A stretch of DNA of 63,236 nt, filler included, from Candidatus Rokuibacteriota bacterium (GCA_031406795.1; 8 parts of 8 records of this genome joined end to end with filler, not necessarily neighbours in it), one strand, 5' to 3'; counted from the first letter of the whole stretch, positions 7,201 to 60,154 are shown. Numbers and translations: made by a program. Notes: generated from the letters alone by a model not told the origin.

Positions 7201-7300
7201 NNNNNNNNNNNNNNNNNNNNNNNNNNNNNNNNNNNNNNNNNNNNTTAATTAATTAANNNNNNNNNNNNNNNNNNNNNNNNNNNNNNNNNNNNNNNNNNNN
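7201..7300. other. Artificial contig spacer (same at 17658-17757, 21788-21887, 50713-50812, 55051-55150, 57469-57568, 60055-60154)
   Basis: N runs with a central TTAATTAATTAA all-frame stop linker. Confidence 0.99.
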
Positions 7301-7403
7301 AACTGAGCACCTCGCCCAACTCATCCCTCGTGGAGATGTAGAAGATCAGTTTGCGCAGCTCGGATCCGTGCGGCACCTCCCCGTGCCTCCCCAGCGGGAG
7401 CAT
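7301..7403 (-). CDS. N-terminal fragment of an unknown protein coupled to the STAS gene
   Basis: TGATG overlap with STAS stop; MLPLGRHGEVPHGSELRKLIFYISTRDELGEVLS runs to contig end. Confidence 0.55.
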
Positions 7404-7738
7404 CACGCCTCCGCCTCGGCGTCGCTGCGCAACATGCGGGCGTGGCGCTGCAGCCCCATGATCCGGAAGATCTCCTCGTTGACCGGGGTCAGCTCCGAGA
7501 ACGCCAGATCGCCCCCCTGCCCCCGGACCCGCTCGATCACGCCGATCAGTATCGAGATACCGACGCTGTTGATCAGGTCGGTGTCGTGCAGGTTCACGAT
7601 GAAGCGGGACACACCCCCGCCGAGCAGCCGCACGATTTCCTGCTCGAGCTGTTCGCCCGCCGCGCGGCTCAAGTACCCGCGCGTCCGGATGATCGCGCGT
7701 CCGGCCGCGACCTCCGTGGTGAAGGTAAAACTAGCCAT
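7403..7738 (-). CDS. STAS-domain anti-sigma factor antagonist
   Basis: IVNLHDTDLINSVGISILI with conserved phosphoacceptor Ser; EEIFRIMGL. Confidence 0.92.
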   Translation of the reverse strand: MASFTFTTEVAAGRAIIRTRGYLSRAAGEQLEQEIVRLLGGGVSRFIVNLHDTDLINSVGISILIGVIERVRGQGGDLAFSELTPVNEEIFRIMGLQRHARMLRSDAEAEA

Positions 7739-9938
7739 GTTCACCCCCTCCGAGATGTTTGACCATCACGAGGCTCACCCCGTCCTCGCGCGGCTCCAGC
7801 GCGACCTCGTCGACGAGCTCGCGGATTAGCGTGAGGCCCCAACCGCGGCCGCGCGCTTCCCGGCCGGCGGCCGCGCGAGGCGGCAGCGAGGCGAGCGGTC
7901 GCCCCCGGTTCTCGACCCGCATCAGCAGCCGCGAGCCGCGGACCGAAAACACCAGGCGCACCCGGCCGTCGGCGGCACCGGCGTGCTCGAAGGCATTGAT
8001 GCAGGCCTCGACGACGGCCATCTTTAGCCTGCCGGTGGCGAGCGCGTCGATCGCGAGGTTTTCGGCGAGCTGTTCGAGAGCGCGGGCCGCCACCAGCTCG
8101 ACGTCCGCTGCGCGCGGAATGACCAGTTCGATCTCGAAGTCCGGCTCGGCCGCGGCAAGCGGGCCGGGCGGGGGAGGCACCGGCGCCACCCCCAGCAGCT
8201 GCGCAAGGGACGCCAGCTGCGGCCAGGCCGAGGTCGAGAGCCGCAACCGGGCGGCCGCCAGCTCGCCCGCGCCGTCGAGCGGGGACTCCAGAATCGCCCA
8301 GCGCACGACCCGCGTGGCCGGCAACTCGCCGGCCATCTGCAGTGCGCTGATGTCGCGCTCGAACTGCGCGAGCTGCTCGCACCCGCCGCTCCCGCCCGGG
8401 AGAAAACGCACGACCCAGGCGACATCCGCCTCCGGGGCACCCGCCTCGCCGCGCAGCGCCCAGACAAGCGCGTCAACCTCCAGGCCGGGAAGCGACACGG
8501 CCTCGCCGATGCGGCCCGCGGCCACGGAGATCACCCGCGGCAGCGTCATCTCGTCGACCGCGCCGTCCGCCGCGGCGTCGCGGCGCTCACGAAATGCCGC
8601 GGCGTCGAAGCAGTCGGCAGGCACACGCTGCCCGGCCCAGGCGCAAAACATCCCGCGCAGCGCAACGCGGGCGGATTCGCGCCAGCGCCGGCGCCGGAGC
8701 GCCGGGGCGCCACGCACCTTCTCGCTAGCGAGCGACGCCACCACCGCCGCCGGCGACATTCGACCGAATTCCCGCCGGTAGAGCGCCTGCACGACATCGC
8801 GGAGCACGGGGTCCCCGTCCACGACAACGCTGGCGAAGCCGACGCGAACGACGCCGGCGCGGGTCAGCCCCGCGAGAGCCGACTCGATGTCGGCCGCCGG
8901 CTTGAGCATCAGCGCCGCGAGCCGCCCCGCGTCGAGGCTGCCCGACTCCTCGCGCAGGCAAAAAATGAGGATCTCCAGCGCGACGGCTCGAGTACGTCGA
9001 TCGGGCATGGCGCGAGCAAACAGTTCGATCCAGTAACGGGCCAGCTCGCCGTCGCAGGCCGCGGCCGCCGCCGCCCGGGCGACGTCGAGCGTGCCGGTTC
9101 CCGGCTCGCCGGCCAGGGCCCGGACCAGCGCGCCCAGGTAATAGGGCGATCCGGCCGACTCCTCCACCAGCGCCGCGACCGCGAGCTCCCCCAACTCCAG
9201 GCCGCCGATCCGCGCCAGACTCCTGGCCAGTCTCGAGGCGGCTTCGATCGACAGCGGGGCGAGACGCTCGAGGGTCAGCCGCGAGGCGGAGGCTTGCCCG
9301 AAAGTCCGCGGGACCAGATTCTCGTCCTCGAGCGTCGCGAGCAGGGGGGCGATCGAGGAGGCGAGCGCCTCTTCCGGCCAGAGCCCCTCCCCGGTCGCGG
9401 CGTCGAGATTCCCGGCGTCGTCGAAAAGACAGAGCACGCGCGTGCCGGTCAGGGCCGCGAAGCGGTGCGGCACGAGCGCCGCGCGCACGAGTGCCTCCGG
9501 CCCGCCGGGGCGCTGCTCGAGTCCGGCCAGCGCCTCCGCCAGCAGCACTCCGCCATCTCCCCAGGCCGTGCGCAACGCCCCGGCGAGCTCCACGGGGTGC
9601 AGGGGACGGTCGAGGAGCCCCGGGGCGCGTTTCTTGAAGGCCAGCGCCTGCAGGGCGAGCGCGGCGACAAGATCGCCGCCGGCAGTCGCCTGCTCGAAAA
9701 GCGAGTGGCGCAGCGGGTACCAGAAGGGAAGAATCTCACCTTCACGGAAGAGGGTCTTGTGCCACTGCCGCAGCAGTTCGGTCTTGCCCGAACCCGGCCG
9801 CCCACAAAGAACACCGCTGCGGCCAAGGCCCCGAAGCAGCGAGCGCGCCTGACGCCGCAACAGGCCCAGCTCTTCGATCCGGCCGAAGAAGCGCTCCGGC
9901 TCGAGAACCCCGGGAAACTCCCCGCCCGGCTCAGCCAC
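7731..9938 (-). CDS. STAND/AAA-type ATPase fused to a C-terminal RsbW-like HATPase kinase domain
   Basis: FFGRIEEL, Walker A GRPGSGKT, Walker B LCLFDD, SAGSPYYL (GxP), wHTH-like region; C-terminal AVVEACINAFEHA and GRGWGLTLIRELVDEV. Confidence 0.85.
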   Translation of the reverse strand: MAEPGGEFPGVLEPERFFGRIEELGLLRRQARSLLRGLGRSGVLCGRPGSGKTELLRQWHKTLFREGEILPFWYPLRHSLFEQATAGGDLVAALALQALAFKKRAPGLLDRPLHPVELAGALRTAWGDGGVLLAEALAGLEQRPGGPEALVRAALVPHRFAALTGTRVLCLFDDAGNLDAATGEGLWPEEALASSIAPLLATLEDENLVPRTFGQASASRLTLERLAPLSIEAASRLARSLARIGGLELGELAVAALVEESAGSPYYLGALVRALAGEPGTGTLDVARAAAAAACDGELARYWIELFARAMPDRRTRAVALEILIFCLREESGSLDAGRLAALMLKPAADIESALAGLTRAGVVRVGFASVVVDGDPVLRDVVQALYRREFGRMSPAAVVASLASEKVRGAPALRRRRWRESARVALRGMFCAWAGQRVPADCFDAAAFRERRDAAADGAVDEMTLPRVISVAAGRIGEAVSLPGLEVDALVWALRGEAGAPEADVAWVVRFLPGGSGGCEQLAQFERDISALQMAGELPATRVVRWAILESPLDGAGELAAARLRLSTSAWPQLASLAQLLGVAPVPPPPGPLAAAEPDFEIELVIPRAADVELVAARALEQLAENLAIDALATGRLKMAVVEACINAFEHAGAADGRVRLVFSVRGSRLLMRVENRGRPLASLPPRAAAGREARGRGWGLTLIRELVDEVALEPREDGVSLVMVKHLGGGEHG

Positions 9939-10533
9939 GGGGAGCTCCGCTCGCCGTGCCGGCCGCGGACTGCACGAGCGCCTCGTAAACGAATTCCCTG
10001 CCGCCCTCGTCGATCGCGCGCTCTTGCCGCCGCACCAGCCGCAGCCGGTGCAGACTGCCGAGTCGGGTGCTGGAGGCGGTGAGTTCGAGTTCGAGCAGGC
10101 CCACCATCTCCCGTGCGCTCATCCGGCGCCGCTCCGCCAGCAGCAGCAGTGTCTCGCGAAGGTGAGGCGTGATCGTGCCCAGGCAGTCCCAGGACCCGTC
10201 GGGGCGCACCAGCAGCGCGGGCAGCCGCTTTCTCTCGAGGGCGACGTGGATATTCTCCCGCTGCGATTCGCCCAGACCGGTCAGCCGCAGGTACTTCTCG
10301 CCATACTCGCCGGCGATCAACCGGGTCACCAGCTTCGCCAGACATTCGTCGGCGCAGGAGAAATCGATGATGCCGACCCCGGAGAAATCCAGGGTCATGA
10401 CGCTTCCCGCCGGAAGCGAACCGAGTTCGCGGGCGAAGGAGGCCCGCGCCGCCCGCCCGGTCTCGCGGGTCACCAGATGAACGACGTCTCCGGCGACGAG
10501 TTTTCTACAAGCCTCCCTGACGACCAGTTGCAC
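9931..10533 (-). CDS. STAS-like domain plus winged-helix protein
   Basis: LDFSGVGIIDFSCADECLAKL; C-terminal SAREMVGLLELELTASSTRLGSLHRLRLVRR. Confidence 0.75.
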   Translation of the reverse strand: MQLVVREACRKLVAGDVVHLVTRETGRAARASFARELGSLPAGSVMTLDFSGVGIIDFSCADECLAKLVTRLIAGEYGEKYLRLTGLGESQRENIHVALERKRLPALLVRPDGSWDCLGTITPHLRETLLLLAERRRMSAREMVGLLELELTASSTRLGSLHRLRLVRRQERAIDEGGREFVYEALVQSAAGTASGAPRG

Positions 10534-10660
10534 CTTGCCGGGCCCCCTTCAACTCGTTCAGCTGAAATCGATTGTACGGCAGCCTCCGCGCACAGGCAAT
10601 CCCTAATCATGCGCTCCTTTCTATTGAATTCCGCCGCCCCCTCTGCTAAGATCCGCAGTC

Positions 10661-11821
10661 ATGCTGAAAAAGTCGCTGCTTGTTCGTGCCGCATCCCTGT
10701 CCGGGTGCCTGATTTTCCTCGTTTTTTCGGCGCCGGCACCCGCCGCTGCGGCGGGCGTGTATTTCGTCAAGGCCGGCGATACGTTGAGTAGCATCTCGCG
10801 GGTCTTCGGCGTGAAGGTCGACAGCATCCGCGAGTTGAACCGCCTCCGGACCGACGATCTCTCGCCAGGTGACAAGCTTCGCCTCCCGGACGCCGCCCCA
10901 GCCCCAGCCCCGATCGCCGATGCTGCGCCGCGCCGCGGGGTGAGTTCCGAACGCGTTCTCCAGGCTGTCTGCCGGGAAGAGACCGTCTATCACACGGTGG
11001 CCAGGGGCGACACCCTGTCCTCGATCGCAAACCGTTTTTCCACGGAACTCGACCGCCTGCTGCAACTCAACGGGATGCGGAAGACCGCCCGCCTCTCGAT
11101 CGGTCAGAAGATCATCGTCCGAAAGAGCGGACCCCGCTCCCACACGGTCGCCCGCGGCGAGACGCTCTCCCGGATCGCCGCCCGCTACGGAGTCCCGGCC
11201 GGCGAGATCGCGCGCTTGAACAGACTCGAGAAGAGCAAGCTCGCCGTCGGACAACAACTGGTGATCGAGCCCTGTGATCCCTACGCGAGCGCCGGCAGCG
11301 CTCCACCCCCGCTCGACGGGCCGGATTCCGCCGGACTGACGGTCGGCGGCCCCGTCTCGACGAGCACCGCATCGGCGGCGCCCGGTGCTGCCGGGCGGAG
11401 TGTCGCCGCGCCCGCGGCGGCGATCGCCGAACGCGTGATCAACCTCGCGCGTACCATGCTCAATGTTCCCTATCGCTTCGGCGGCAGCACGCTGCGCGGC
11501 ATCGACTGCTCGGCCTATGTTCAGCGGGTTTTCGGGCTCATGGACGTCCGGATTCCCCGCACTGCCCGTGAGCAGTACTCGGTCGGGGCCCGCATCGACC
11601 GCGACGACATCCAGGTCGGCGACCTGATCTTCTTCCGGACCTACGCATCATTTCCTTCGCACGTCGGCATCTACCTCGGGGAGAATCTCTTCATCCACGC
11701 CTCGTCGATGGTGCGCAAGGTGGCCATCGACAGCCTTGACCTGCCCTACTACCGCAGGCGGTTCATCGGCGCCCGCCGGCTGGTCGTCGACGACGCGCCG
11801 GCCGTCGCTTCCACCCCCTGA
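10661..11821 (+). CDS. LysM (x3) / NlpC-P60 peptidoglycan endopeptidase
   Basis: Signal peptide; three GDTLSSI/GETLSRI LysM repeats; GIDCSAYVQ, HVGIYLG, FIHASS. Confidence 0.95.
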   Translation: MLKKSLLVRAASLSGCLIFLVFSAPAPAAAAGVYFVKAGDTLSSISRVFGVKVDSIRELNRLRTDDLSPGDKLRLPDAAPAPAPIADAAPRRGVSSERVLQAVCREETVYHTVARGDTLSSIANRFSTELDRLLQLNGMRKTARLSIGQKIIVRKSGPRSHTVARGETLSRIAARYGVPAGEIARLNRLEKSKLAVGQQLVIEPCDPYASAGSAPPPLDGPDSAGLTVGGPVSTSTASAAPGAAGRSVAAPAAAIAERVINLARTMLNVPYRFGGSTLRGIDCSAYVQRVFGLMDVRIPRTAREQYSVGARIDRDDIQVGDLIFFRTYASFPSHVGIYLGENLFIHASSMVRKVAIDSLDLPYYRRRFIGARRLVVDDAPAVASTP

Positions 11822-11920
11822 CCAGCTGCGGGCCGGGCCTTCTCCGCGGAGCCGCCCGACGGCCCGATTCGCCCTGGCAGCCAGCTCGTACCCCCCGCCT
11901 CCGGCGCCCCCCATCGTCCA

Positions 11921-11948
11921 TTGACATCGGCCTTGCCGCCGCTATCAT
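11921..11948 (+). promoter_or_regulatory. Sigma70-type promoter
   Basis: TTGACA-16 nt-TATCAT upstream of the polyprenyl synthetase. Confidence 0.6.
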
Positions 11949-11998
11949 TCTGCGGACACGACAGAGAACAACGACACGCTGACGAGGAAGGCTGCGAG

Positions 11999-13006
11999 AT
12001 GACGAGCGGAGCGGTTGCCGGGCAGACGGGAAACTACCAGGACCTCATGCTGCGCTTCGCTCCCGATCTCGCGGCCATCGAAGCGGCGATCGCGGACAAC
12101 CTCTCCTCGAGCAACGAACTTCTCGAAGCCATGGCGGCCCACGTGGTGAAGAGCGGCGGCAAGCGGCTGCGCCCGCTGCTGGTGATTCTCTCCTCCCGGC
12201 TGTGCGGCTACACCGGCGGCGACCACGTCTTGCTCGGCAACGTCGTCGAGTACCTCCACGCCGCGACCCTGCTGCACGACGATGTCCTCGACGACGCCGC
12301 GCTGCGACGCGGATCGCCCTCGGCCAACCGGGTCTGGGGCAATCACCTCGCGGTGCTCGGCGGCGATTTCCTCTACACGACCGCCTTCGACCTGCTCCTC
12401 TCCGCGGTTCCGCGGGAGATCATCCGCGTGCTTTGCCGCTGCTCGCTCGATATGATCGACGGCGAGGTTCTGCAACGGCGCTGGCGGAACCGGCCCGAGA
12501 TCTCCGAAGAGACCTACCTGGCCATCGTCGGCCGCAAGACGGCCAGCCTGATTTCGGGCTGCTGCCGCTCCGGCGCCCTGCTCGCCGGCGCCCCGCCCGC
12601 ACGGGTAGAGGCGCTCGGGCGATTCGGCACCAGCCTCGGCACCGCCTTCCAGGTCATCGACGACACGCTCGACTACCTCGCCGACCCGGGGCGTCTCGGC
12701 AAGGCGCTGGGGGGCGACCTCCGGCAGGGGACGGTGACCCTGCCGCTGATTCACCTGCTGCGCCGCGACGGCCTCGCCGCCGAACAGTCCCGGATCCGGG
12801 GACTCATCGAACGCGGCGAGGTGGACGACGCGGGCATCGCCGACATCGCCGCGCTGCTGCGCGAGCAGCGCTGCGGGGAGAGCGCCATGGCGCGCGCCCG
12901 GGAATTCGCCGCCGACGCCCGGCTGGCGATCGAGCCCCTTCGTGGCACGGAACTGCACGCCGCCCTCACTGCCGCCGCCGACTTCGTCATCGACCGCGAC
13001 CTGTAG
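11999..13006 (+). CDS. Polyprenyl diphosphate synthase (IspB-like)
   Basis: GGKRLRP, LLHDDVLD..LRRG, KTA, FQVIDD. Confidence 0.93.
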   Translation: MTSGAVAGQTGNYQDLMLRFAPDLAAIEAAIADNLSSSNELLEAMAAHVVKSGGKRLRPLLVILSSRLCGYTGGDHVLLGNVVEYLHAATLLHDDVLDDAALRRGSPSANRVWGNHLAVLGGDFLYTTAFDLLLSAVPREIIRVLCRCSLDMIDGEVLQRRWRNRPEISEETYLAIVGRKTASLISGCCRSGALLAGAPPARVEALGRFGTSLGTAFQVIDDTLDYLADPGRLGKALGGDLRQGTVTLPLIHLLRRDGLAAEQSRIRGLIERGEVDDAGIADIAALLREQRCGESAMARAREFAADARLAIEPLRGTELHAALTAAADFVIDRDL

Positions 13007-13019
13007 CCCGTCCCCGTCC

Positions 13020-13160
13020 GCCCGGGTCGTTTGGGAGGCCCTGACGCGCCCCGGCTGCGTTGCTCATCGCGATGCTTGTGCGGCGCACACCAGTGCGCCT
13101 CCGCGCACGCTCTTCGCTGCCTTGCCGGGACGCGCCAGGACGCTCCCAAACGACTCGGGC
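13020..13160 (+). repeat. Palindromic interspersed element family 1, copy A (141 bp)
   Basis: Terminal IR GCCCGGGTCGTTTGGGAG...CTCCCAAACGACTCGGGC; homologous to 22159-22299 and 31343-31484. Confidence 0.9.
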
Positions 13161-13227
13161 AGCCTATGCGCGGAACTTCAGGGCCAGTTCCGGGATTGTT
13201 GCCCTCGCTTCGCTGGGCAATGAACCA

Positions 13228-13421
13228 GCGAGGCGGCTGGGATTTCACTGAGGGAAGATGCGCGGAGCCGCCGTGAAGCCCGGCGCGGTGACCGGGGCGG
13301 TCCCGCAGGGACGAAGTCTCGTTGTTTGAGCCGCAGGCGAGTTACGAGACTTCGAGCACCGGGCACCGTGACGGGCAGGCGGCGCAGACGCACGACCGAA
13401 GGGAAATCCCCGCTGCCTCGC
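13228..13421. repeat. Nested-hairpin element family 2, copy A (~195 bp)
   Basis: Homologous to 16735-16930; core TGTTTGAGCCGCAGGCGAGTT. Confidence 0.9.
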
Positions 13422-13448
13422 GCACGGGAACGGCAGGGTCTCGTCCGA

Positions 13449-13778
13449 TCAGCGCACCGTCACGAGCGGGCGCAGGGCGTTTACCAGTTTCTCGCCGAAC
13501 CCCGGCACCAGCTTCAGGTCAACGACGGTGCGAAATGGACCGTGTGCCGTCCGGTGGGCGACGATCCTCGCCGCCAGCGCCGTACCGACGCCGGGGAGGG
13601 TTTCGAGGTCCGCGGCTGACGCGCTGTTGATGTCGAGTTGCAGCTCCAGGGTCGGGTCGTCGGGGACGGGGACCGCAATCGGTCGCTGCGCGGCATTGCG
13701 GCCCTGAACGACGGCGAACGCAAAGAGCGCGGCCGCCAGGACGATCAGGACCCGCTGCGCCGCCCCGCTCCCGGGCAC
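13449..13778 (-). CDS. ComEA-family helix-hairpin-helix DNA-binding protein
   Basis: N-terminal TM; DINSASAADLETLPGVG..LAARIV..R...GPF...DLKLVPGFG. Confidence 0.9.
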   Translation of the reverse strand: MPGSGAAQRVLIVLAAALFAFAVVQGRNAAQRPIAVPVPDDPTLELQLDINSASAADLETLPGVGTALAARIVAHRTAHGPFRTVVDLKLVPGFGEKLVNALRPLVTVR

Positions 13779-13782
13779 CCGG

Positions 13783-15372
13783 TCACCCCCCCGCGGACTG
13801 GTCCTTATGCAGCTTGTACTCGATCGCGTCGACGAGCGCCTGCCATGAAGCCTCGATGATGTTCGTCGAGACCCCCACGGTGCCCCAGCGTCCCTCGCTG
13901 TCGCCGGACTCGATCAGCACGCGTACCTGCGCCGCCGTGCCGGCCTCCGCGGTCAGCACCCGCACCTTGTAGTCGATCAGCTCCATCTGCTTGAGCGAGG
14001 GGTAAAAGCGGTACAACGCCTTGCGCAGCGCGGAGTCAAGCGCGTTCACCGGTCCCTTGCCCTCGGCGACCGTGTGCTCGGTCTTGCCGTCGACGATCAG
14101 CTTCACCGTCGCCTCCGAGATCGCCTCCTCGCGCTCCTTGCGCTTCTCGACGATCACGCGCGCCCCCTTGAACTCGAAGAAGCGCTGCTGCAGTCCGAGG
14201 GTGCGCTTCATCAGCAGCTCGAAGGAGGCCTCGGCCCCCTCGAACTGGAACCCGCGCGCCTCCAGTTCCTTCAGGTGCGTCAGAATGGCGAGCGCCTTCG
14301 GGTCCTTCGACTTCAGGTCGATGCCGAACGAGGCGGCCTTGTGCAGCACGCTGGCGCTGCCGGAGTAGTCCGACACCAGGACGCGCTGGCGGTTGCCGAT
14401 CTGTTCCGGAGGCACGTGTTCGTAGGTCAGCGCGTTCTTGAGGATCGCACTGACGTGCACCCCGGCCTTGTGCGCGAATGCCGAGTCCCCCACATACGGT
14501 TGATGCTTGAAGTGGGGCATGTTCGCCAGTTCGGACACGAAGCGCGAGAGCTCCCGCAACCGCGGCAGATTTTCGGGGGGGACGCAGCGCAGACCGAGCT
14601 TGAGCTGGAGCGTCGGGACGATCGAACAGAGGTTGGCATTCCCGCAGCGCTCACCGTAGCCGTTGATCGTACCGTGCACCTGCGTACACCCGGCGGCCAC
14701 CGCCGCAACGCTGTTGGCGACGGCCATCTCGGCATCGTTGTGCACGTGAATGCCCAGCGCGGCGTGCGGCAGACGCCGGTGCACCAGGCGCACGATTTCC
14801 ACGAGTTCGGCGGTGACCATGCCGCCGTTGGTGTCGCACAGCACGATACAGTCGGCGCCGGCGCCGGCGGCCGCCTCGATCGTCGCCAACGCGAACTCCC
14901 GGTTCTGGCGGCAGCCGTCGAAGAAGTGCTCGGCGTCGTAGAAGACTTCCCGGACCTTGCCCTTGAGGAACGACACTGAGTCGGCGATCATCGCGAGATT
15001 CTCCTCCGGGGAGACTCGCAGCACGTCCCGGACGTGCAGATCCCAGCTCTTGCCGAAGATCGTCACCGCCGGGGTCCCCGCGGCCACGAGCGCCCGCAGC
15101 GTCTCGTCGTCGGCGGCCGCGCGCCGCGCGCGACGCGTCGAACCGAACGCGACCACCCGGGCCTGCTTCAGGCTCAGGCGCCGCACACGCTCGAAGTACT
15201 CGGAATCCTTCGGGTTCGCTCCCGGCCAGCCGCCTTCGATGTAGGGGACGCCGAACTCGTCGAGTTGCCGCGTGATGCGCAGCTTGTCCTCAACCGAGAA
15301 CGCGATGTCCTCGGCCTGGGCGCCGTCGCGCAGCGTCGTGTCGTAGATCTGGACGCGACGCTCCTGTTTCAC
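13783..15372 (-). CDS. cimA: Citramalate synthase
   Basis: [52 protein letters not shown]; follows lysC. Confidence 0.93.
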
Positions 15373-16610
15373 AGGTCGCGGTCCCCGGCCACGCTGCCGC
15401 TGCCAAGGGCGAAGGCCTCGTGCAGGATCCGGGTCGCGAGTTCGGCGTACTTCGACTCGATGAGGCAGGAGATCTTGATCTCCGAGGTGCCGATCGAGAG
15501 GATGTTGATCTTCTCCTCGGCCAGCGCCCGGAACATCTTCGCGGCGACGCCGGCGTGGCTGCGCATGCCCGTGCCGACGATCGAAATCTTGGCGAGGTTG
15601 TCGGCGGCGACGACGCCGTTCGCGCCGACCGCGGCGCACACCGGCGCGAGCGCCTCGCGCGTGCGCTCGCTGTCGCCCTTGAGCACCGTGAACGTGATGT
15701 CGGTGGTCCCCTCGCGGCTGACGTTCTGCACGATCAGGTCCACGAGAATGCCGGCCTCGGCTATCGCCTGGAAGATCTGCGCGGCGACGCCGGGGCGGTC
15801 GGGCGCCCCCTGGATCGTGATCTTGCTCTCATTCCTGCTCAGTGTCACGCCCGAGACGAGTACCTGTTCCATCGAGGGGTCCTCCTTGGTCACCATCGTG
15901 CCGGGGTTGTCGGTGAAGCTCGAGCAGACCCGGACCGGGACGTTGTAGTTGGCGGCGTACTCGACCGAGCGCGCCTGCAGCACCTTCGCGCCGAGCGAAG
16001 CCATCTCGAGCATCTCCTCGTAGGAGACCCGCGCGAGCAGCCGCGCGTCGGGCACCACGTTCGGGTCGGCGGTGTAGACCCCGTCGACGTCGGTGTAGAT
16101 GTCGCAGCAGTCGGCGTCGATGGCGGCGGCGAGCGCGACCGCCGTCAGGTCGGAACCGCCGCGTCCGAGCGTGGTGATCTCGTCCTCCGGCGTCACGCCC
16201 TGGAAGCCGGCGACCACCGCGACCTCGCCGGCGTCGAGCGCGGCGCGCACGCGATCGGCGGTGACGCTGCGGATCCGGGCGCGGGTGAAATCGGTGTCGG
16301 TCACGAAGCCGGCCTGCCACCCCGTGAACGACCGGGCGGGGCAGCCCAGGTCGCACAGCGCGATCGCCAGCAGCGCGATCGTCACCTGCTCGCCGGTGGC
16401 CACGAGCATGTCCTGCTCGCGCGCGTCGGGCCGCGAGGCGACTTCCTGCGAGAGCCGCAGCAGGCGGTCGGTCTCCCCGCTCATCGCCGAGACGACGACC
16501 GCGACCCGGTTGCCCTTCGCCTGAGCTCCCGCGACGAGGCGGGCGACGTTCTTGATCCGCTCGGCGGACCCGACCGAAGTGCCGCCGAACTTCTTGACGA
16601 TGAGTGCCAT
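15369..16610 (-). CDS. lysC: Aspartate kinase
   Basis: [23 protein letters not shown], two ACT domains, TSEIKIS. Confidence 0.97.
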
Positions 16611-16639
16611 GCGTTCCTCTCCTGAGAAATAGTCTCCGA

Positions 16640-16667
16640 ATTGTAGCGATTGCACGAAAGGTGTCAA
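16640..16667 (-). promoter_or_regulatory. Sigma70-type promoter for lysC-cimA
   Basis: Minus strand TTGACA-16 nt-TACAAT. Confidence 0.65.
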
Positions 16668-16734
16668 TCATCGTACCACCGTGATCCGGGCTGCCTGGGA
16701 ATCACCGCAGACGGGAATCGATTCCCGAACTGGA

Positions 16735-16930
16735 GGAGGGGCGGCAGGGGATGCCCTGAGGGAAGATGCGCGGAGCAGCCGATCAGCCCGAAGGGGTGAC
16801 CGGGGCGGTCCCGCAGGGACGCAGGCTCGTTGTCTGAGCCGAAGGCGAGTTACGAGCCCGCGAGGCCCGGGCACCGCTTCGGGCCGGCTGCGCAGACGCA
16901 CGACCGATGGGCATCCCCCGCCGCCCCTCC
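16735..16930. repeat. Nested-hairpin element family 2, copy B
   Basis: Homologous to 13228-13421 with compensatory stem changes. Confidence 0.9.
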
Positions 16931-16943
16931 GGAACGGTCGAGC

Positions 16944-17657
16944 CTAGTCGACGACCTCCGCATCCACGACCTCGGGGTCGCCGCCCGGTTTCTTTTTCCC
17001 GCCGCCCTTCCCCTTCGCCCGGGGCGCCGCCGCTTCGCTCCGCGTGAACGTCAGCGCCTCCGACCCCTTCTCCAGATGCGCGAGCACCGTGTCCCCGTCG
17101 CGGAACTCGCCGCCGAGGATGCCGCGCGAGAGCGGGTCGAAGACCAGCCGCTGCACCGCGCGCTTGAGGGGCCGCGCCCCGTAGGCCGGGTCGTAGCCGA
17201 CGTCGGCCAGGTGGTCCTTCGCGCCGTCGGAGAGCAGCAGCGTGATCTTGCGCTCCTCGAGCCGCTTGAGCAGCAACCCGACCTGGATCTCGACGATCCG
17301 CCGCAGGTGCTCCCGCCCGAGGGTATGGAAGATCACCGTCTCGTCGACCCGGTTCAGGAACTCCGGCCGGAACGCCTGCCGCAACTCCTCGGTGACGAGT
17401 GCCTTCATCCGCTCGTACTCGCTCTCGGGCATCCCCTGGATGTGCTGCGAGCCGATGTTCGAGGTCATCACGATCAGCGTGTTGCGGAAATCCACGTGGC
17501 GGCCCTGGCCGTCGGTCAGCCGCCCGTCGTCGAGCACCTGCAGCAGCACGTTGAAGACATCGGGGTGCGCCTTCTCGATCTCGTCGAAGAGAATCACGCA
17601 GTAGGGGCGCCGGCGCACCGCCTCGGTCAGCTGCCCGCCCTCCTCGTAGCCGACGTA
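16944..17657 (-). CDS. clpB: ATP-dependent chaperone ClpB, C-terminal part (5' truncated)
   Basis: [54 protein letters not shown]. Confidence 0.92.
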
Positions 17658-17758
17658 NNNNNNNNNNNNNNNNNNNNNNNNNNNNNNNNNNNNNNNNNNN
17701 NTTAATTAATTAANNNNNNNNNNNNNNNNNNNNNNNNNNNNNNNNNNNNNNNNNNNNC

Positions 17759-21787: not shown

Positions 21788-22158
21788 NNNNNNNNNNNNN
21801 NNNNNNNNNNNNNNNNNNNNNNNNNNNNNNNTTAATTAATTAANNNNNNNNNNNNNNNNNNNNNNNNNNNNNNNNNNNNNNNNNNNNCGAGGGGCTGACG
21901 CCATTATTGCTTTGCGCTGCTCCCGACTCAGCGGGCGGTTCGAAGATTTCTGGGAGCGACGCTCAAAATGCGCCGCGTGATCAATGCGGCCCCCGATGGT
22001 GCTCACTCAACAATCCTGTCGTGCACCCCCGGGCCAAACCGCCGGCGCGGCATGTATGCCCCGAGGACCGCAGGCTCAACGTCCTTGGCTGCCCGCGCGC
22101 AGTCACGCACGGAAGTTTTTCGACCTGGCAAGGCAGTCGCGCACTACGGAAACGTACT

Positions 22159-50694: not shown

Positions 50695-50812
50695 CAGTTT
50701 TCTATGTTTTCGNNNNNNNNNNNNNNNNNNNNNNNNNNNNNNNNNNNNNNNNNNNNTTAATTAATTAANNNNNNNNNNNNNNNNNNNNNNNNNNNNNNNN
50801 NNNNNNNNNNNN

Positions 50813-54400: not shown

Positions 54401-55150
54401 GTAACCGACGGCATGAGGCGCGCACAACGCAACTGCATGATAATCATCGAGATATATGCGGCTGAAAAAATACTCGCAGAGGAACCCCCAGAACTCTGAA
54501 ATTACTTATTGAGACAATCAGGCAGGCTCACAGTCGCTCGGACCATGCACTCAGCGTCAGGAATACAAAATAATCAAAGGCTTCCCTGCCCTCGGAAGTT
54601 TTAAATCCGGGATCTGCTGTCTCAGAATTTGCTTTCGAAACATGTGATACAAGGTTCGGAACCGCGAGGTCGTCAAGCCCCCAGGAAGGCATGTTGAGAC
54701 TGTATTGTTCGGGACAACGCCTTGACAAAACGCTTCTTGGCCCAAAGAATCGCCTCCACAAGAAGCGAAAGCAGCACTGAGTCGGCTACTCCGCTGTATG
54801 GTGGCGTTCTGTTCATTTGGCGGATGAACGCTCCGCCTTTGCTGGCCGAAGCAAGTGTTGGTCGCAGTCGCTTGGGATTGATGCCGCGGACAGAGATCGC
54901 TCTTGCCGACAATGGCATAACGCATGAGGACCTCGTCGACAGTGCTGGGCGAGATCCCATGGACAAGCGATCGGCAAGAATAATTTCATGCGCCTTCAAG
55001 CAGGGTTGGATTGAAACGCCTGGCGGCACCGTCGGCCATCTGTTTCGTGCNNNNNNNNNNNNNNNNNNNNNNNNNNNNNNNNNNNNNNNNNNNNTTAATT
55101 AATTAANNNNNNNNNNNNNNNNNNNNNNNNNNNNNNNNNNNNNNNNNNNN

Positions 55151-57468: not shown

Positions 57469-57568
57469 NNNNNNNNNNNNNNNNNNNNNNNNNNNNNNNN
57501 NNNNNNNNNNNNTTAATTAATTAANNNNNNNNNNNNNNNNNNNNNNNNNNNNNNNNNNNNNNNNNNNN

Positions 57569-60054: not shown

Positions 60055-60154
60055 NNNNNNNNNNNNNNNNNNNNNNNNNNNNNNNNNNNNNNNNNNNNTT
60101 AATTAATTAANNNNNNNNNNNNNNNNNNNNNNNNNNNNNNNNNNNNNNNNNNNN

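Follow-up and report, generated by a model that had tools for sequence, protein, structure and literature searches.

The locus described here lies in a 63,236-nucleotide stretch of DNA from a Candidatus Rokuibacteriota bacterium (GCA_031406795.1), referred to herein as the window, and centers on a gene for a 735-residue protein that joins a P-loop NTPase module to a GHKL domain. The window consists of eight contigs held together by seven artificial joins, each made of N44, a 12-base linker with stops in all frames and another N44; genes at the join edges are truncated, and adjacency across any join is meaningless. The operon sits on a contig of 10,357 bp (7301-17657) and comprises four tightly packed genes on the minus strand (Table 1). 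Genes 1 and 2 share 8 nt, genes 2 and 3 share 14 nt, and the ATG of gene 4 at 7403 shares one base with the stop codon of gene 3. The gene 4 frame runs for 34 codons to 7302 and is cut there because the contig ends at the artificial join of 7201-7300. An earlier reading made from the sequence alone (the sequence-only reading) had described four overlapping genes of which the fourth is truncated, and our frames agree with it. The motifs that it had named are likewise all present: FFGRIEEL (residues 17-24), Walker A GRPGSGKT (46-53), Walker B LFDD (171-174, within LCLFDD 169-174), the GxP-type lid motif G-S-P (263-265) and EVDALVW (487-493) in the 735-residue protein, and INSVG in the 113-residue STAS protein.

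Table 1. Features of the operon and its promoter region, and artificial joins, in window coordinates.
Feature	Position	Strand	Basis
Gene 1, predicted CapS-family STAS-winged-helix protein, 200 aa	9931..10533	-	Profile match to solved CapS
Gene 2, NTPase-GHKL fusion, 735 aa	7731-9938	-	Pfam, profile, AlphaFold2
Gene 2 residues 9-300, P-loop NTPase core and helical lid	9039..9914	-	Walker A 9780-9803, LFDD, G-S-P 263-265
Gene 2 residues 314-375, winged helix after the lid	8814..8999	-	Model secondary structure and profile matches
Gene 2 residues 396-585, long helix and alpha/beta domain	8184..8753	-	AlphaFold2 topology
Gene 2 residues 601-730, RsbW/SpoIIAB-type GHKL serine-kinase domain	7749..8138	-	Pfam, profile, superposition
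Gene 3, single-domain STAS protein, 113 aa	7403..7744	-	Pfam STAS, TIGR00377
Gene 4, first 34 codons, predicted N-terminus of GAF-HD-GYP protein	7302..7403	-	Identity to L001 orthologue
Sigma-70-type promoter-like site TTGCCT-17-TACAAT	10571..10599	-	Upstream of gene 1; hexamers conserved in L001 and L084
Perfect 10-bp palindrome TTCAGCTGAA, candidate operator of the CapS-like protein	10557..10566	.	Conservation and position
Artificial joins	7201-7300, 17658-17757, 21788-21887, 50713-50812, 55051-55150, 57469-57568, 60055-60154	n/a	

The C-terminal part of the gene 2 product matched Pfam HATPase_c_2 (residues 613-727, E 9e-17), and NCBIfam returned weak matches to RsbW, RsbA and SpoIIAB. A profile of the protein family retrieved RsbW from the PDB sequences (E 2e-20), and upon superposition the modeled domain fitted RsbW with a root mean square deviation of 1.3 over 103 residues at 35% identity. 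This superposition bears out the anti-sigma kinase domain that had been proposed for this end of the protein, as an RsbW-type GHKL module. Across 85 family representatives, residues E644 and N648 of the N-box were present in every sequence and H652 in 82, while the glycines G699 and G701 of the G2 box (R698-G-W-G701) were found in 83.

For the remainder of the protein we relied on an AlphaFold2 model (predicted local distance difference test (pLDDT) 90.6, predicted template modeling score (pTM) 0.79) computed from an alignment of 85 full-length relatives. Residues 9-385 were superposed with VIA-align on 48,161 PDB representatives. The archaeal Walker-type ATPases 2qen_A (24.4 / 323) and 2fna_B (22.8 / 317) came out highest, accompanied by the plant NLRs 9h2l (20.3 / 316) and 9qlv (19.9 / 299), ORC2 (1w5s, 18.4 / 315), CED-4 (2a5y, 14.1 / 320), Apaf-1 (3j2t, 13.8 / 325) and a bacterial Avs protein (9jap, 13.5 / 276). 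Foldseek agreed with this picture, and the family profile matched the sequence of 2fna over residues 15-365 (E 3.4e-6) and winged-helix-turn-helix (wHTH) regulators over residues 316-372. Pfam AAA_16 matched residues 16-182 with an E-value of 3e-5 and 25 bits, under its 32.6-bit cut-off. When curated models were run on the first 60 of the 85 family representatives, AAA_16 matched 30, ATPase_2 14, NPHP3_N 8, nSTAND1 3 and nSTAND_NTPase5 1. On the strength of the superpositions and the 2fna profile match, residues 9-385 are a P-loop NTPase with lid and wHTH, a grade common to ORC/Cdc6, the archaeal ATPase_2 proteins and STAND. The window protein keeps Walker A Lys52 and the Walker B Asp-Asp.

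The sequence-only reading had called this module a STAND-type NTPase. The tripartite, NB-ARC-like arrangement of P-loop, helical lid with GxP and winged helix is indeed there; however, the closest solved folds are archaeal Walker-type ATPases, and the confident model contains no repeat array of the kind that would form a C-terminal sensor (TPR, WD40 or LRR). Compared with STAND NTPases (NB-ARC/NACHT, Avs), the window protein differs by its lack of a repeat sensor, by a serine-kinase output and by a context outside defense islands. Compared with the archaeal ATPases PAB2304 (2qen) and SSO1545 (2fna), which belong to Pfam ATPase_2/AAA_16 and end after the wHTH without a kinase domain, it differs in what follows.

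Between the wHTH and the kinase domain lies a middle part of about residues 396-598, in which a long helix (396-432) precedes a compact alpha/beta domain (433-585) with the modeled topology alpha-beta-beta-beta-alpha-beta-alpha-beta-alpha. Fold searches with the 735-residue model were taken up by the N-terminal module and the kinase, leaving the middle domain outside those searches. A 39-sequence profile of the domain found no PDB match at E-values up to 10, and its Pfam matches were scattered over single members with none consistent. ESM Atlas offered leads to Mrr_cat (0.82) and DUF234 (0.81), all matches being below 0.9. The PD-(D/E)xK fold has an alpha-beta-beta-beta-alpha-beta core with an acidic/Lys catalytic set. 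The middle-domain topology fits this core, and the window protein is without an E-[DE]-K set, having F-P-G at alignment columns 512/514/516. The suggestion that this region resembles a nuclease domain of archaeal-type ATPases is a lead at most, coming from the topology and ESM Atlas; there is no PDB or Pfam match behind it, and the candidate catalytic residues are absent here.

The same columns divide the family. The Walker A lysine is kept in 31 of the 85 representatives, which form the window's type, and is missing in 54. An Arg-Arg pair after strand 4 is absent in 29 of the 31 sequences with the lysine and present in 52 of the 54 without it, a near-perfect split with four exceptions. In the Lys-less type, column 512 is predominantly E or Q, column 514 D or E and column 516 K, and the E-[DE]-K set is confined to members without the Walker A lysine. 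Just one of the 80 genome loci considered below carries a member of the Lys-less type. This pattern in the alignment suggests that the two types represent two different sensing or catalytic modes. The division between an intact P-loop and a Lys-less form with a conserved acidic/Lys triad amounts to a natural experiment on sensing by the N-terminal half.

Gene 3 encodes the canonical STAS protein that had been predicted (Pfam STAS, E 7e-10; TIGR00377, E 2e-10). In 28 orthologues Asn59, Gly62 and Ser64 are invariant and Ser60, the predicted phospho-acceptor (codon 7565-7567), is kept in at least 90%. The 34 residues left of gene 4 are 63% identical to residues 6-35 of a 431-residue protein at L001, the locus most closely related to that of the window (66% identity). 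The L001 orthologue carries GAF_2 (E 7e-8) and HD_5 (E 9e-34) domains with intact HD and GSGYP motifs, and by this resemblance gene 4 is taken as the N-terminus of a GAF-HD-GYP protein. Since the gene is cut, this partner in cyclic di-GMP (c-di-GMP) signaling was hidden from the sequence-only reading.

Gene 1 encodes a STAS-like domain at the N-terminus, covering about residues 1-112, followed by a wHTH that spans about residues 120-186. Pfam gave no match for it, a faint ArsR-type HTH (E 0.04) was its one match in the domain scans, none of its 219 relatives in the protein collection has a Pfam domain, and a single-sequence AlphaFold2 run returned an unusable model (pLDDT 40). A profile of 37 homologues, in contrast to the searches with Pfam, matched the solved CapS proteins of E. 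roggenkampii (9z71_A, E 1.9e-9, residues 24-185) and V. cholerae (9z72_A, E 2e-10, residues 105-186), and the 9z71_A match over both domains supports the STAS-plus-wHTH description already proposed. As reported in the main text of Chambers et al. (EMBO J 2026, PMC13373217; PDB 9Z71-9Z73), CapS is a homodimeric STAS-wHTH repressor and CapK an HTH-STAS-GHKL kinase of the anti-sigma type. According to the same text, single-stranded DNA (ssDNA) activates CapK, which phosphorylates CapS at Ser54; phosphorylation breaks the CapS dimer and de-represses the adjacent operon, and the operons regulated are immune ones (PMC13373217, June 2026).

The chain numbering of 9z71 equals the native numbering plus two, as we checked at the GG wing (171-172 against the published 169-170) and at Asn147 (against Asn145). 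With this offset, gene 1 Ser59 aligns with chain residue 56 and thus falls on CapS Ser54. A DFS motif had been placed at the usual phospho-acceptor position; DFS in fact occurs twice, at residues 49-51 and 57-59, and the second alone is at that position, making Ser59 (codon 10357-10359) the predicted phospho-acceptor. Ser59, Asp57, Asp62, Glu63 and the wing Gly177-Gly178 were invariant in 37 of 37 gene 1 sequences. Gly177-Gly178 align with CapS Gly169-Gly170, and gene 1 sequences show no conservation at the sites of CapS Asn145 and Lys151. Like CapS as described in that text, gene 1 keeps the acceptor Ser, the surrounding acidic residues, the STRL helix motif and the GG wing. From these comparisons we regard the 200-residue protein as a CapS homologue.

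The resemblance to CapK/CapS, as far as the main text of PMC13373217 describes that system, extends to the locus: gene 1 adjoins an anti-sigma-type GHKL kinase gene, heads its operon and has a palindrome at its promoter. There are also differences. The window kinase is a 735-residue NTPase-wHTH-X-GHKL protein rather than an HTH-STAS-GHKL one, the gene order is reversed so that the repressor gene precedes the NTPase-GHKL gene, the unit includes a second, free-standing STAS protein as well as an HD-GYP gene, and the genes downstream of operons of the window's kind are hrcA-grpE-dnaK instead of immune genes. Upstream of gene 1, TTGCCT-17-TACAAT was the sole such site in 7301-10800, where shuffled sequences averaged 0.1. 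The palindrome lies 5 nt downstream of the -10 hexamer; in the promoter alignment it is exact in the window and L001 and has one mismatch each in L084 and L083. The 63-kb window holds one exact copy; with one mismatch allowed the matches number two, a count reached by 28 of 100 shuffles, so the support for the palindrome is its conservation and position, not statistics. An inverted-repeat finder at its settings found nothing in the promoter region, and the palindrome emerged from the alignment.

We searched exhaustively for relatives of the 735-residue protein with HMMER, which at E <= 1e-3 yielded 837 cluster representatives, 102 of them with E <= 1e-30. Most span 700-780 residues and align over their full length; there is also a shorter form, about 555 residues long, in which residues 400-597 are missing. 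We then considered the best 80 of 475 stretches that encode relatives in GTDB species genomes. In 60 of these 80 loci the same cluster has a called open reading frame (ORF) of more than 690 residues. Because the full-length fusion recurs in so many genomes and lineages, a read-level frameshift is excluded, and the fusion is genuine as had been claimed. The loci are labeled Deltaproteobacteria/Thermodesulfobacteriota, Deferrimicrobiaceae, Brocadiaceae, Rokuibacteriota, Pyrinomonadaceae, Nitrospiraceae, Actinomycetota and Gemmatimonadota. Free-standing kinase domains with a STAS neighbor occur at L070 and L079, and at L068 the gene is in two pieces.

The gene order likewise recurs in many genomes. 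Directly downstream of the kinase gene, tblastn located a STAS gene in 73 of 80 loci. Among the seven misses, four reflect contig ends; at the other three (L040, L058 and L068) the STAS gene lay beyond the E-value or distance limits of the script. A GAF-HD_5 gene follows the STAS gene in 40 of 67 evaluable loci by tblastn, a count that treats L040, L058 and L068 as negatives, though the gene was detected at each of them by blastp. In 23 of 65 loci that could be evaluated, the start of the kinase gene is abutted or overlapped by the end of a PocR-GAF-GGDEF gene, and HD-GYP/GGDEF genes often overlap or abut the core genes. The other recurrent neighbors are housekeeping genes (radical SAM, RNase G, GntR, SelA, RecJ, SecDF). 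The flanks in relatives are hrcA-grpE-dnaK, secDF, recJ, RNase G and selA, and synteny is stable within lineages; in the window the flanks encode a LysM-NlpC/P60 protein, a polyprenyl synthase, a LeuA-like synthase and ClpB.

At L001 the order is LysM-NlpC/P60 (divergent), gene 1, gene 2, STAS, GAF-HD_5, hrcA, grpE and dnaK, and it is repeated through hrcA in L084 (genome G005) and L002. An hrcA gene was found next to the operon in the window's clade alone, at L001 and L002 among the 80 loci and additionally at L084. The hrcA-grpE-dnaK genes begin about 20 nt (L001, 6618-6639) or about 70 nt (L084, about 11378-11450) after the HD-GYP gene. With up to three mismatches to the consensus allowed, no CIRCE-type element was matched in L001, L084 or the window. 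The heat-shock genes may be co-transcribed with the signaling operon in the window's clade.

In the window and in genomes G001, G004 and G005, the kinase gene is immediately preceded by gene 1; the phylum of G001 has five genomes, and gene 1 is in three of them. Among six close metagenome loci (74-85% identity), all four with sequence beyond gene 1 run into the kinase gene. Distant gene 1 relatives (74 loci, L091-L164, 42-52% identity) were never beside the fusion kinase (0 of 74). In 21 of the 74 there is instead an upstream CapK-like gene, with STAS and HATPase matches just under the Pfam cut-offs. Twenty of the 74 have RmuC downstream, and ribonucleotide reductase, CinA and restriction-modification genes are other neighbors. 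Restriction-modification aside, the context of these distant genes is DNA-damage-flavored, unlike the immune operons stressed in the main text of PMC13373217. The co-occurrence pattern, close against distant, indicates that the window's clade has re-used a CapS-type repressor with a different kinase. The CapS repressor fold is accordingly confined neither to immune operons nor to CapK-type kinases, which widens the reach of the CapK/CapS mechanism.

Taken together, the domain identities, the CapS homology, the conservation of the acceptor serines and the gene order established here point to a partner-switching module whose kinase is gated by the fused NTPase and which acts on c-di-GMP turnover and, within this clade, also on a CapS-type repressor. 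We judge this reading to be evenly poised between right and wrong. In it, the 735-residue protein would couple an AAA+/STAND-like switch (P-loop, lid, wHTH and the extra alpha/beta domain) to an RsbW-type GHKL kinase, and whether the kinase domain engages its STAS-fold substrates would depend on the N-terminal part and its nucleotide or ligand state; the kinase activity, signal and targets are what we infer. The 113-residue STAS protein would be the universal partner, phosphorylated at Ser60, and, depending on its phosphorylation state, would bind either the kinase or the neighboring c-di-GMP enzymes. These would be the GAF-HD-GYP phosphodiesterase here and, in other lineages, also the PocR-GAF-GGDEF cyclase, so that the switch would set local c-di-GMP turnover. 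In the window's clade, the operon would have gained a gene for a CapS-family STAS-wHTH repressor in first position. If this protein works like CapS in the main text of PMC13373217, its unphosphorylated dimers would occupy the promoter palindrome until Ser59 is phosphorylated, whereupon they would come off and the operon would be de-repressed.

Parts of this scheme have counterparts in known systems. The input of HsbR-HsbA-HsbD is reportedly a phosphorelay through a response-regulator protein. In the window the input would instead be a P-loop NTPase fusion, and the enzyme is mainly an HD-GYP phosphodiesterase. The likeness to that system, in which the STAS anti-anti-sigma protein HsbA of Pseudomonas aeruginosa binds and controls the diguanylate cyclase HsbD (PMC5085249), is the direct wiring of a STAS protein to a c-di-GMP enzyme that we propose for the window STAS protein and HD-GYP/GGDEF, with homology compared by shared domains only. 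As in RsbW-RsbV and SpoIIAB-SpoIIAA, the window has an adjacent single-domain STAS protein with a conserved Ser. Unlike those pairs, the family has neither a sigma-factor gene nor a PP2C gene in its conserved neighborhood, and unlike RsbW and SpoIIAB, the window kinase has about 600 residues fused N-terminally and an Asn in place of the G1-box Asp.

Several points weigh against the partner-switching reading. Every functional step in it is inferred. The G1-box Asp of GHKL domains contacts the adenine base. Here this residue (DxGxG) is replaced, in alignment with RsbW, by Asn677 (codon 7908-7910), because of which ATP use, and hence the kinase activity of the 735-residue protein, is uncertain. 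Position 677 is Asn in 71, Ser in 11 and Asp in 1 of the 85 representatives, and Deferrimicrobiaceae-type loci keep the Asp. As an aside, an altered nucleotide preference is possible, given Asn677 amid an otherwise conserved ATP site. Nucleotide gating, plausible for the window's type, is not general for the family because the 54 Lys-less representatives have lost the Walker A lysine. The GAF-HD-GYP gene was not found after the STAS gene in 27 of the 67 evaluable loci. No PP2C phosphatase occupies any conserved neighbor position around the 80 loci, so the reset step of a partner switch is missing. The CapS-like gene is limited to one small clade: blastp placed none next to the kinase gene at the 79 other genome loci. 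Where its distant relatives have a kinase partner at all, it is a different, CapK-like one. Lastly, hhalign of the gene 1 family against the STAS family of the operon gave a probability of 1.3%, which is not significant, and the STAS assignment of gene 1 consequently derives from CapS.

The competing explanations are, in our ranking, a sigma-factor switch, a kinase-dead scaffold and an immune sensor. If the switch were of the classical kind, the GHKL domain would be an anti-sigma factor for a sigma factor encoded elsewhere, the STAS protein would free that factor, and the c-di-GMP genes would be co-regulated only. The closest solved relatives of the GHKL domain (RsbW, UsfX and SpoIIAB) are all anti-sigma factors, which together with the weak NCBIfam matches to RsbW, RsbA and SpoIIAB, and the matches of the adjacent STAS protein to anti-sigma-antagonist models, fits this explanation. 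Yet the sequence-only reading had proposed a neighborhood survey for a PP2C or sigma partner, and neither is among the conserved clusters around the 80 loci, where no sigma-factor or defense gene recurs. The commonest conserved neighbors are instead HD-GYP/GGDEF enzymes, in many cases overlapping or abutting the core genes, and we consider a sigma-factor switch unlikely. A GHKL domain without ATP binding, on the other hand, would merely sequester STAS proteins and leave the P-loop NTPase cycle alone to drive switching. The Asn aligned with the RsbW G1-box Asp in 71 of 85 representatives is what such a scaffold might show, and the lack of a nearby phosphatase gene fits a phosphorylation-free switch. 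Against it, the Mg/catalytic N-box and the G2 box are near invariant over the 85 sequences, which would be surprising if the ATP site were dead. Both STAS-fold proteins have also conserved their acceptor serines, and one branch retains the Asp in otherwise similar proteins. A kinase-dead scaffold is, in our estimation, quite unlikely.

It had also been proposed that the locus is an NLR-like sensor wired directly to partner switching, with a leaning toward immunity; as an anti-phage or conflict sensor, its STAND-like NTPase would recognize an invader and respond through phosphorylation. The superposition of the NTPase-lid-wHTH module on plant NLRs, CED-4, Apaf-1 and bacterial Avs is in keeping with this idea, as are the matches of family members to nSTAND1 (3/60) and NPHP3_N (8/60) and the regulation of immune operons by CapK/CapS, the nearest characterized STAS-wHTH relatives, reported in the main text of PMC13373217. 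The 735-residue protein, however, is without a repeat-type sensor arm or effector domain, and members of the window's type lack the candidate nuclease triad in the middle domain. PADLOC found only mad8 (E 0.045), a P-loop-level match, and the flanks of the window and its relatives are housekeeping genes in synteny that is stable within lineages. Of the original proposal, the NTPase-GHKL fusion and the STAS-wHTH neighbor remain, but on our reading the protein is not an immune NLR, and it has no sensor repeats; with housekeeping genes around it and c-di-GMP enzymes as the conserved partners, the immune leaning falls away, and we hold an immune sensor to be highly improbable.

The partner-switching reading can be taken further. 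Tentatively, and with considerable doubt, we suggest a phylogenetically wide and so far undescribed class of partner switches in which an AAA+/STAND-like switch fused to an RsbW-type kinase directly controls HD-GYP/GGDEF enzymes through a small STAS protein. As a part of this, a Rokubacteria-like clade would have captured a CapS-type repressor, placing the unit under phosphorylation-dependent de-repression, which may include the abutting hrcA-grpE-dnaK heat-shock genes. Within the same reading, the kinase might work with GTP or another nucleotide in place of ATP, as the change of the G1-box Asp to Asn could indicate.

The architecture had been thought uncharacterized. This holds for the NTPase fusion, as we found no description of an NTPase-GHKL fusion in the full-text literature, including PMC13373217, PMC13581612 and PMC7159879, with subscription-only papers and supplements outside its scope. 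It does not hold for a GHKL kinase acting on a STAS-wHTH repressor, which is CapK/CapS as presented in the main text of PMC13373217. In that main text, its supplementary datasets being outside the scope, the terms P-loop, AAA, NTPase and HD-GYP are absent. The individual parts of the locus are thus of known kinds, and the logic of a STAS-wHTH protein with a GHKL kinase has been characterized since June 2026; the kinase-NTPase fusion, its systematic linkage to HD-GYP/GGDEF and its pairing with a CapS homologue were not found described in the open full-text literature without supplements and are apparently new. Partner switching and c-di-GMP signaling are two main bacterial decision circuits, and few inputs to STAS kinases are known, namely stressosomes, response regulators and, since 2026, ssDNA for CapK. 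If the partner-switching reading is true, a P-loop NTPase becomes a new input device that is physically tied to c-di-GMP synthesis and breakdown, and the link spans many poorly studied anaerobic and groundwater lineages.

A few minor observations concern the loci and the contig. Conserved upstream ORFs of about 240 residues on the kinase strand at Deferrimicrobiaceae-type loci (L006, L014, L030, L034 and L069) were considered as gene 1 homologues and rejected, as what they reflect is a divergent radical-SAM gene read in antisense. Such antisense-shadow ORFs in high-GC genomes are a trap for ORF-based neighborhood counts. An Rfam scan of the operon contig returned no family at the gathering score. 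At L084 (G005:C15), on a contig of 1.46 Mb, the kinase orthologue (7578-9764) and hrcA (11450-12479) each lie in two or three frames, and these splits look like long-read indel errors rather than pseudogenes. The C-terminal part of a ClpB-type chaperone (AAA_2, ClpB_D2-small) is encoded on the minus strand at 16944-17657, at the far end of the operon contig, where it is cut.

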